Of a stretch of 64,000 bases of DNA, positions 8,665 to 41,457 are shown piece after piece; positions within the stretch are counted from its first letter, which is position 1, and each line of letters opens with the position of its first letter. The notes beneath the pieces were generated by a model that saw nothing but the letters and a program-made list of their open reading frames with translations, ran no database searches and was not told the origin of the DNA. This DNA comes from Escherichia coli (GTDB taxonomy: Bacteria > Pseudomonadota > Gammaproteobacteria > Enterobacterales > Enterobacteriaceae). The DNA lies in NCBI RefSeq assembly GCF_003334815.1, contig NZ_QOWO01000005.1; one strand, written 5' to 3'. A program made the position numbers and the translations under genes.

Positions 8665-11817
<3,153 letters not shown>

Positions 11818-11834
11818 TACAACGTGTAATCACT

Positions 11835-11860
11835 AAGGCCGCGTAAGCGGCCTTTTTTAT
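11835..11860 (+). terminator. rho-independent terminator after acrB
   Basis: Stem aaggccgc / gcggcctt with loop gtaa, followed by a T6 run. Confidence 0.75.
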
Positions 11861-12362
11861 GCATAACCTACGAACATTAAGGAGTAATTGAACCACCAAC
11901 TCAGGATCTCATACGAAAACCAGTATTAACCACGGATAAAATTCATAAAAAATACTGATTGTTAGTTAATTTATATTAAGTAGCGCTAATAGATTTAATA
12001 ATCCATAATCATTTAGAGGCTATTCTTAATTATTTGCGGTAATTCTTTATTCATTCCTCGGTTATTACGTCATATTCAGAGCAATCCTGGTATTAGTGTC
12101 ACCAATTTCATCTGGCGATAATCCTGAAATGTTATGAATAGTTCGAGCAAACTGCTTTTACCTGCTGCGGGTTAGTGCTAGTATGAAAAAGTGAGTCCTG
12201 TCCCGCTTCCTTCCTAATTGTAATTTTTCGTAATAATGCGATGAAAACCTGCAAAGAGTGGCTTATAGTTAAGCTAACAAACGAGAGGGCAAGTCCAGGT
12301 CAGTAAGTTTTTTCCATCCCGAAAGGTGTCCGTTAGTTCAACCGCTAAGAAGGGGACGCGTT

Positions 12363-12737
12363 ATGGATGAATACTCACCCAAAAGACATGATATCGCACA
12401 GCTTAAGTTTCTCTGTGAAACCCTGTATCATGACTGCCTTGCAAACCTTGAAGAAAGCAATCATGGCTGGGTAAACGACCCAACCTCGGCGATCAACCTC
12501 CAGTTGAATGAACTGATTGAGCATATTGCGACCTTCGCACTTAATTACAAAATTAAGTATAATGAAGACAATAAGCTCATTGAGCAGATCGACGAATATC
12601 TGGATGACACCTTTATGTTGTTCAGTAGTTATGGTATTAATATGCAGGATCTTCAGAAATGGCGGAAGTCAGGTAATCGACTATTCCGTTGTTTTGTCAA
12701 TGCGACGAAAGAGAATCCTGCGAGTTTATCTTGTTAG
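12363..12737 (+). CDS. tomB: Hha toxicity modulator TomB (YbaJ)
   Basis: ORF 12363..12737 (+), 124 aa; immediately upstream of hha. Confidence 0.9.
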
Positions 12738-12762
12738 AATTATTACAACCATAGGTAGAAGT

Positions 12763-12981
12763 ATGTCCGAAAAACCTTTAACGAAAACCGATTATTTAAT
12801 GCGTTTACGTCGTTGCCAGACAATTGACACGCTGGAGCGTGTTATCGAGAAAAATAAATACGAATTATCAGATAATGAACTGGCGGTATTTTACTCAGCC
12901 GCAGATCACCGCCTCGCCGAATTGACCATGAATAAACTGTACGACAAGATCCCTTCCTCAGTATGGAAATTTATTCGCTAA
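12763..12981 (+). CDS. hha: haemolysin expression modulator Hha (H-NS partner)
   Basis: Within ORF 12517..12981; trimmed to [72 protein letters not shown], 72 aa. Confidence 0.93.
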
Positions 12982-13152
12982 TAAATAATTCGCTTTCGGA
13001 GCTATAACCGGCTGTTTATTAAGAATTTTATACTTTTTCGCCATGAAGACATACCCTATGTGATCTTTATCACACAGATGTAATGGGAACGTTCTCTTCA
13101 CTGACTTTTCGTCTTACTGTGTTGCCGCATTTTCAGCAACCGGAGGTCAGTA

Positions 13153-31347: not shown

Positions 31348-31620
31348 TTAGTTTACCGCGTCTTTCAGTGCTTTACCTGCACGGAAGCTCGGTACTTTAG
31401 CAGCAGCGATGGTGATCTCTTTACCGGTCTGCGGGTTGCGGCCAGTACGGGCAGCACGCTCTTTAACGGCAAAAGTACCAAAACCTACCAGTGCTACATC
31501 ATCCCCTTCTTTCAGAGATTCAGTTACGGAAGCAATAATAGCATCTAACGCACGGCCAGCCGCAGCTTTAGAGATATCAGCCCCTGCAGCAATCTTGTCG
31601 ATCAATTGAGATTTATTCAC
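31348..31620 (-). CDS. hupB: nucleoid protein HU beta subunit
   Basis: ORF 31348..31620 (-), 90 aa; [29 protein letters not shown]... Confidence 0.96.
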
Positions 31621-41001: not shown

Positions 41002-41457
41002 TCTGTAAATATTATTTAGCTGTAGTAATCACTCGCCGTAATTATTACGGCTAAATAAACATCAGTATCGCTTATTAATATTTGTTCTTTTGTGCGGCTT
41101 AGCGTTTGGAAATTATTGGCGCCATTTATAAATTCTATTTTTCTTACACGATTCAGCTAATGAGTCTTTATTTTCTCATCACCCAGTTGTCACTCTAATG
41201 ATAATTATTTGTTAAATAATTGTTTTATTTCACATTGGTTATACCAATTGCCCGCCCAGACTCCTTCAGCACTCCCCTTTTGTTATAACGCCCTTTTGCA
41301 ACAGCTTCTTAAAATCAACCTGATATGTTTTGCAACATATGTGACCTGGCAGCCAAATCCAAGTAACAGGAATTTAATCATGTTTACAGTAATGTAACCT
41401 TCCCGTAAAATGCCCACACACTTTAAACGCCACCAGATCCCGTGGAATTGAGGTCGT

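Follow-up and report, generated by a model that had tools for sequence, protein, structure and literature searches.

The acrB-tomB gap of Escherichia coli: a terminator-to-promoter spacer with a conserved tomB-hha promoter core and candidate upstream regulatory islands

The DNA analyzed here (the window) is a stretch of 64,000 nucleotides from Escherichia coli that corresponds to positions 429071-493070 of the E. coli K-12 MG1655 chromosome (NC_000913.3) in reverse complement, with 0 mismatches over the 8001 nt around the region of interest; a window position x converts to genome position 493071 - x. In the window, the TGA stop codon of acrB lies at 11815-11817 and the ATG of tomB at 12363, leaving between them a gap of 545 bp at 11818-12362 (NC_000913.3 480709-481253) ahead of the tomB-hha operon. 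An initial annotation, made from the sequence, had drawn exactly these limits and had described the gap as unusually long and AT-rich, without an ORF of at least 60 aa. These descriptions hold. The RefSeq gene table gives 56 intergenic gaps in the window (median 126 bp), of which this one is the longest; its GC content is 37.8% as compared to 51.6% for the window, and its core is poorer still (31% at 11861-12100 and 28% at 11900-12060), while the largest ORF within it spans 40 aa on the minus strand. The AT-richness does require a qualification, as it extends through both downstream genes. The gap lies approximately 1.2 standard deviations under the mean of the 56 window gaps (45.6 ± 6.5% GC), and the AT-rich island to which it belongs is larger than the gap, covering 1.3 kb (11858-13152, 38.8% GC) and taking in tomB (40.5%) and hha (40.6%) between neighbors of 54% (acrB) and 48% (maa) GC. 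RefSeq annotates no feature inside 11818-12362. The RefSeq record of MG1655 does include recently added ncRNAs such as AsflhD.

To compare the locus among relatives, one genome per species was scanned. TomB is encoded at 80 loci, and the 76 that also carry acrB form the comparison set. Across these 76 species of Enterobacteriaceae, from about 20 genera, the gap measures 435-559 bp (median 509, standard deviation 24) and has a GC content of 35-40%. The fourfold-degenerate sites of tomB, which are 47-48% identical to E. coli in the comparison set, provide a neutral yardstick. Approximately 60% of the gap positions are at or below this neutral level, with most of 11977-12214 scoring 0.2-0.4, and conservation is confined to islands, namely the terminator, the CpxR-type repeat, the promoter hexamers, the CCATCCC element, the ribosome-binding site, an upstream palindrome, a -10-like hexamer, and a further motif (Table 1). 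What is conserved across these species is length, GC content, and several islands. The segment at 11860-11935 is confined to Escherichia, with no counterpart in Salmonella, Citrobacter, or any other genus compared; of 5426 E. coli genomes, 5233 have it as a single copy, and no annotated feature lies beneath it. Matches are broken in roughly 34 genomes. An insertion sequence hotspot within the gap was considered and rejected, the IS1 of strain SC516 being located inside tomB and not in the gap.

Table 1. Features of the acrB-tomB gap, in window coordinates
Feature	Position	Strand	Details
acrAB intrinsic terminator	11835..11858	+	Stem AAGGCCGC / GCGGCCTT, loop GTAA, T run
Escherichia-only segment	11860..11935	.	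~75 bp, single-copy
Moderately conserved block	11938..11976	+	AAAATTCATAAAAAATACTGATTGTTAGTTAATTTATATT; family consensus TCATAAA..CTTATTGT..GTTTATTTT
Conserved -10-like hexamer	11997..12002	+	AATAAT in K-12, TATAAT in many genera
RcsB-box-type palindrome	12076..12089	.	TCAGAGCAATCCTG; 9/10 specified positions of TN(G/A)GAN4TC(T/C)NA
PdhR-box-like site	12092..12106	.	ATTAGTGTCACCAAT; extended site (12091-12107) 12/14 to AATTGGTnnnACCAATT
Conserved ATGA/TAAGG motif	12117..12139	+	Degenerate E. coli version of gcTAAc-N3-ATGAa-N3-tAAGG
CpxR-type direct repeat	12220..12234	+	GTAAT-TTTTC-GTAAT, -56 to -42 from TSS
tomB-hha sigma-70 promoter	12241..12269	+	-35 ATGAAA 12241-12246, 17-bp spacer, -10 TATAGT 12264-12269
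tomB-hha mRNA 5' leader	12276..12362	+	87 nt; invariant CCATCCC 12314-12320; SD AAGGGGA 12350-12356

The terminator that the initial annotation had placed behind acrB is present. A terminator scan finds a G+C-rich stem of 8 bp at 11835-11854 with the T run after it, and no other site in the gap. The GGCCGC...GCGGCC stem is found in all 76 related gaps, its conservation is 0.89 against a neutral 0.47, and changes in the stem are compensatory (AAGG..CCTT to GGG..CCC; GGTCGC..GCGACC). Toward the other end of the gap, the tomB-hha promoter agrees with the sigma-70 consensus at 9 of 12 positions in a promoter scan, and its -35 and -10 hexamers are conserved at 0.93 and 1.0, respectively, in the 76 species. 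Genomic SELEX identified the identical hexamers as a constitutive RpoD promoter of tomB-hha, in a table row that flags the tomB-acrB spacer with 'HNS' (Shimada et al., 2014). Published mapping lists a single tomB TSS at 480019 of NC_000913.2, on the minus strand, with 53 reads and an 87-nt 5' UTR (Table S1 of Kim et al., 2012). The 50 nt of upstream sequence given in that table place this TSS at window position A12276, 7 nt past the -10 hexamer; the offset between versions 2 and 3 of NC_000913 is 776 here. Between tomB and acrA the E. coli table, which reflects a limited set of growth conditions and includes UTRs of >400 nt, contains no further TSS. At the orthologous promoter of Klebsiella pneumoniae, 151 reads support a TSS that leaves a 97-nt UTR (Kim et al., 2012). 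A published EσS ChIP-seq peak (479920-480115) converts to window positions 12180-12375 and is centered on the TSS, and in Salmonella the proximal fragment, 'p922', was the only one of three BPROM-predicted promoters to drive GFP.

With a single mapped TSS at 12276, the known leader takes up just the final 87 nt of the gap, and the name of "untranslated region" that had been given to all 545 bp is thus a misnomer. The accompanying view of the gap as a regulatory region for tomB-hha is borne out. The leader is conserved at 0.70 overall, with CCATCCC at 0.95 and the Shine-Dalgarno (SD) sequence at 0.99. No covarying structure was found in it, and the sole predicted anti-SD pairing, UCCC:GGGG, is without covariation. 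An RNA thermometer or SD-sequestering leader was rejected, as the predicted pairing probability of the SD (0.76) is close to that of shuffled sequences (0.68 ± 0.21) and is the same at 25 to 42°C. A longer leader starting at 12191 (fold z = -2.05) was rejected as well, there being no TSS at this position and its extended -10, 'TGCTAGTAT', not being conserved even within Escherichia.

The best-conserved element of the gap is a direct repeat that the initial annotation had overlooked. It scores 0.99 against a neutral 0.47, and its distance to the -10 hexamer is exactly 44 nt in 74 sequences. Of the 10 positions of the CpxR consensus GTAAA-N5-GTAAA, the repeat matches 8, its pentamers being GTAAT and not GTAAA. 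On the opposite strand, this consensus corresponds to the published form TTTAC-N4-8-TTTAC. A motif match is unspecific by itself, with 60 in the window compared to 45 expected. Both Erwiniaceae and Apirhabdus retain the repeat. The Erwiniaceae operon follows a different gene across a gap of 143-152 bp, and it preserves GTAAT-N5-GTAA(T/G), a promoter with a 17-bp spacer, and the leader. The repeat, promoter, and leader therefore appear to constitute an ancestral core that persists next to a different upstream gene and in a gap of ~150 bp. The primary source for CpxR at tomB in E. coli is reportedly a 2006 study by Yamamoto and Ishihama. In Yersinia pseudotuberculosis, CpxR~P binds a promoter fragment of the orthologous ymoBA operon (ymoB = tomB, ymoA = hha) in which a CpxR motif precedes TSS2 by 56 bp, and the promoter becomes more active on Cpx activation; ymoBA has two TSSs, at -188 and -106. 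Moreover, a published list of EcoCyc response-regulator targets has ybaJ, the old name of tomB, among the Cpx regulon genes. As the motif match alone is unspecific, it is the invariance of the repeat and its retention in Erwiniaceae, together with the binding at Yersinia ymoBA and the ybaJ listing, that point to CpxR. GTAAT-N5-GTAAT, centered near -49, is thus a candidate CpxR~P site.

Further islands lie upstream of this core. A palindrome fits the published box for the RcsB homodimer, TN(G/A)GAN4TC(T/C)NA, of which exact copies occur in 41 of the 76 gaps, the Salmonella and Enterobacter versions among them, while 3.1 are expected from shuffles (maximum 9). A relaxed box is present in 72 of the 76, its distance to the tomB ATG being 305-335 nt in almost all cases, and symmetric variants among relatives include TAGGAATATTCCTA, TAAGAATATTCTTA, and CAGGAATATTCCTG. 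When the pattern was checked on the flhDC and rprA regions of MG1655, their known boxes were the sole matches. No link between RcsB and tomB was found in the literature, and the palindrome could also serve a different dimeric regulator. A hexamer that matches TATAAT at 5-6 of 6 positions is located 68-78 nt upstream of the palindrome, where two 5-nt bins contain 61 matches in a set of 77 unique sequences. Its counterpart in Salmonella is the BPROM prediction 'p622', which gave no GFP in the published assay, and the hexamer may mark a distal promoter that is silent or used conditionally. In 66 sequences, the gcTAAc-N3-ATGAa-N3-tAAGG motif precedes the CpxR box by 102 ± 4.7 nt, and the block at 11938-11976, visible in a 17-genus alignment, is conserved at 0.64 against a neutral 0.47. 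In a comparison with possible regulators, the ATGA/TAAGG motif and the block gave no convincing fit to the consensus sequences of IHF, ArcA, PhoP, OmpR, sigma-28, or sigma-E. Because the conserved islands occur at kept spacing, the upstream extension does not appear to be free spacer, and the regulators named for these islands are putative binders. No earlier description of the islands was found, and the RcsB-like module is the only new lead among them, one of modest interest.

Other regulatory inputs to the operon have been proposed. A published statement places tomB-hha under direct PdhR control. The PdhR-like box in the gap is one of just two matches with at most one mismatch in the 64 kb, the other being an exact match in the cyoA-ampG spacer upstream of cyoA; outside E. 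coli the box is not conserved (0.13). The PdhR box published from gSELEX was considered as the relevant site and set aside, as it maps to 11347-11363 inside acrB, approximately 570 bp away, and is a weak match (8/14). Both the RcsB-like and PdhR-like sites are approximately 170-200 bp upstream of the TSS, which is far for direct activation or repression. With regard to H-NS, the initial annotation had suggested that the AT-rich tract is H-NS-bound and that the operon may be autoregulated, given that Hha is an H-NS partner. The first suggestion agrees with the base composition and the 'HNS' table flag but not with the distribution of the high-affinity nucleation motif TCGATAAATT, which has one 2-mismatch match in the gap and no local enrichment. 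The argument for H-NS binding accordingly comes from composition and the published flag, and the idea is plausible and partly backed. As for autoregulation, a form of it has been reported in Salmonella, where TomB shifts the proximal promoter fragment (p922) in EMSA and promoter activity is altered in hha and tomB mutants, whereas autoregulation by Hha/H-NS as such was not found in the literature.

Taken together, these observations make it probable that the gap is a terminator-to-promoter spacer combined with a multi-input control region of the tomB-hha operon, and that it harbors no separate RNA or protein gene. Transcription of acrAB stops at the hairpin at 11835-11858, and transcription of tomB-hha begins at A12276 from the sigma-70 promoter ATGAAA-17-TATAGT, as sequence together with published mapping shows. 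The 87-nt leader has a strong GGGG(A) ribosome-binding site. CpxR~P bound at GTAAT-N5-GTAAT may make operon expression responsive to envelope stress, a step suggested by the invariance and position of the repeat and by the orthologous Yersinia promoter. The remaining ~360 bp present in Enterobacteriaceae would serve as an AT-rich scaffold for nucleoid proteins, with H-NS flagged, and for further regulators, for which the PdhR-type box in E. coli and the family-wide RcsB-type palindrome ~190 bp upstream of the TSS are candidates. Such a scaffold would keep its composition and its length, with a few islands at set distances, while most of its bases drift.

An alternative possibility, rather unlikely but of real weight, is that the AT-richness is a compositional legacy of an old, horizontally acquired tomB-hha cassette and that the upstream DNA is functionless and coated non-specifically by H-NS. 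This would account for the low GC content of the entire 11858-13152 island, both genes included, for an Erwiniaceae operon that works with a short gap in another neighborhood, for the drift of most positions in 11977-12214 to or below the neutral level, and for the lack of H-NS motif enrichment. A functionless spacer, however, would be expected to shrink or to differ in length, whereas the length of this one (standard deviation 24 bp) and its GC content are constant over about 20 genera. The conservation at fixed spacing of the palindrome (exact in 41/76 compared to 3 expected), the ATGA motif, and the -10-like hexamer likewise argues against it.

The preferred reading, that of a spacer with a multi-input control region, can be taken one step further, although this extension is speculative and probably incorrect as a whole. 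The ~300 bp upstream of the CpxR box could be an Enterobacteriaceae-specific, spacing-constrained module that puts Hha/TomB under Rcs control, possibly via a silenced distal promoter, and the RcsB-type palindrome, the gcTAAc-N3-ATGAa-N3-tAAGG motif, and the -10-like hexamer may be its parts. If true, the module would be a second envelope-stress input to Hha/H-NS silencing, beside Cpx. A related but improbable scenario is that the distal promoter at 11997-12002 itself yields a tomB mRNA with a leader of ~350 nt under unsampled conditions, with the palindrome and the ATGA/TAAGG motif acting in the RNA or downstream of its start. AT-rich, H-NS-bound DNA often conceals silenced promoters, the -10-like hexamer keeps a fixed place in most genera, BPROM predicts a promoter at the equivalent position in Salmonella, and Yersinia ymoBA has two TSSs. 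However, p622 failed to produce GFP in Salmonella, the -35 is poor, neither Yersinia TSS lies near -350, and no TSS is found there in the E. coli or Klebsiella table even though UTRs of >400 nt are included.

The initial annotation had also raised the prospect of a hidden small RNA or micro-ORF, and neither was found. It is very unlikely that the gap hides an unannotated gene of either kind. Small ORFs do exist, with 13 aa at 11888, 13 aa at 12134, and 21 aa at 12241, besides minus-strand ORFs of 24 and 40 aa, and the first of these follows an AGGAG. This TTG ORF (11888-11929) begins a mere 3 nt after the AGGAG, however, and lies in Escherichia-only DNA without being conserved even in Escherichia, while the 12241 ORF opens inside the -35 hexamer, upstream of the TSS. 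An ATG is positionally conserved within the ATGA motif, and a peptide starting there was considered and rejected: its ORFs range from 5 to 34 aa, have unrelated sequences, and lack an SD, and the third triplet is NNT with its first two positions free, the reverse of a coding pattern. No ORF among the small ORFs scanned is conserved in frame and length with an SD. For an RNA gene, Rfam gave no significant match (the best, 18.5 bits compared to a threshold of 41, overlaps the terminator), and there is no second TSS, internal terminator, or annotation. Finally, a decayed gene or mobile-element remnant is hardly credible, since, despite a 117-aa ORF directly upstream of the CpxR box in Erwiniaceae and IS1 inserts in the neighborhood in some strains, tblastn of the three 117-aa proteins against all gaps gave a best E of 0.14, the gap contains no significant repeats but just short two-copy matches, and the Escherichia-only segment is single-copy.

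Together with H-NS, Hha, which is one of its partners, silences virulence genes and genes gained by horizontal transfer, and TomB is a modulator of Hha. The amount of Hha therefore helps to set the strength of silencing, and the gap is the place where this amount is decided. Much of this is already known: the K-12 promoter and TSS are published, as are the entries for PdhR, H-NS, and EσS and the listing among response-regulator targets, so that the observation of a long AT-rich gap as such adds little, and the gap is a real but ordinary feature. In practical terms, the analysis defines a small core unit that is conserved into Erwiniaceae, indicates that there is no hidden gene to annotate, and identifies an upstream palindrome that fits an RcsB box by its sequence. 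This palindrome may hint at a link between envelope stress and Hha/H-NS silencing. The conserved CpxR-type core and the candidate RcsB-type palindrome, a lead of modest interest, are the useful additions.

The tomB-hha control region resembles several known systems in part. The AT-rich upstream regions of csgD, flhDC, and proU are bound by H-NS and belong to complex enterobacterial promoters. The tomB region shares with such promoters a long stretch of AT-rich upstream DNA in which composition is kept more than sequence, as well as several reported regulators (the H-NS flag, PdhR, a response regulator that would be CpxR by its list neighbors, and EσS). Unlike them, it has no nucleation motif, and its promoter was classed as constitutive in vitro and not as silenced. 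The Salmonella EMSA shift by TomB and the mutant effects are reminiscent of type II toxin-antitoxin promoters, which are autoregulated by the antitoxin. However, the EMSA used 10-100 μM protein, no conserved operator palindrome was identified between the -10 and the start codon, and E. coli TomB is described as acting on Hha by promoting its oxidation and not via a stable complex.

With the RcsB and RcsAB boxes of flhDC, rprA, and cps, the upstream palindrome has in common the form of a 14-bp pseudopalindrome, and many genera carry TAAGAATATTCCTA-like sequences. The K-12 version differs in having G in place of the final A of the RcsB box, and its position ~190 bp upstream of the TSS contrasts with that of the rprA box, which adjoins the -35, and of the flhDC box, which is just downstream of the TSS. 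The closest parallel to the core is Yersinia ymoBA, the orthologous operon, which is bound and activated by CpxR~P, whereas the tomB site is a candidate by sequence; in Yersinia, the level of YmoA protein was unchanged although the promoter was activated. Like the CpxR-activated promoters of cpxP, degP, and ppiD, the candidate tomB site has tandem GTAAA-type pentamers with 5-nt spacing upstream of the -35, and ppiD, which is also located within the window, carries similar pentamers upstream.

Together with both flanking gaps, the tomB-hha unit forms a 1.3-kb island of 38.8% GC, and the genes on either side of it have a GC content of 48-54%. The hha-maa gap holds a terminator-like hairpin on the minus strand. 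A simple scan detected no plus-strand terminator for hha. In public assemblies, the TomB (PF10757) and Hha (PF05321) domains are combined in single protein calls of 185-205 aa (P0005, P0008, P0010, P0026 and others). Because 25 nt separate tomB from hha in K-12 and the two genes lie in different reading frames, these two-domain calls are probably products of frameshifted assemblies. In E. coli strain SC516, codons 11-14 of tomB are interrupted by an IS1 element with a 9-bp target duplication, and the RefSeq annotation of this strain gives a shortened tomB that starts immediately past IS1.

In Erwiniaceae, the tomB-hha pair is found in a different gene neighbourhood, with ybaZ-like and ybaY-like genes located 3' of hha. 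A conserved 117-aa ORF without a Pfam match lies directly upstream of tomB; the CpxR-type repeat overlaps with the stop codon of this ORF.

Coordinates of the features described (L002, tomB locus of strain SC516; L085-L087, Erwiniaceae loci encoding TomB)
Feature	Position	Strand	Location
RcsB-box-pattern match TCAGACGCGTCTGA, exact and palindromic	window 9375-9388		inside acrB
AT-rich island	window 11858-13152		tomB-hha unit and flanking gaps
IS1 interruption, SC516	window 12395-12403; L002 2204-2973		tomB
Terminator-like hairpin	window 13055-13078	minus	hha-maa gap
Three CpxR-type pentamers GTAAAGCACTGAAAGACGCGGTAAA	window 31352-31376	minus	upstream of ppiD, at hupB end
Exact PdhR box ATTGGTTATACCAAT	window 41234-41248		cyoA-ampG spacer, upstream of cyoA
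Conserved 117-aa ORF	L085 2004-2357; L086 and L087 995-1348		directly upstream of tomB

The match in acrB, probably a chance occurrence, is the sole exact RcsB-box-pattern match across the 64 kb. CpxR-type pentamers were found upstream of ppiD, and ppiD and ybaJ (the former name of tomB) both appear in one published list of response-regulator targets. The PdhR box lies in the second-longest gap of the window (459 bp, 35.9% GC), and since this spacer is upstream of cyoA, whose operon is a stated PdhR target, the box serves as an internal positive control.
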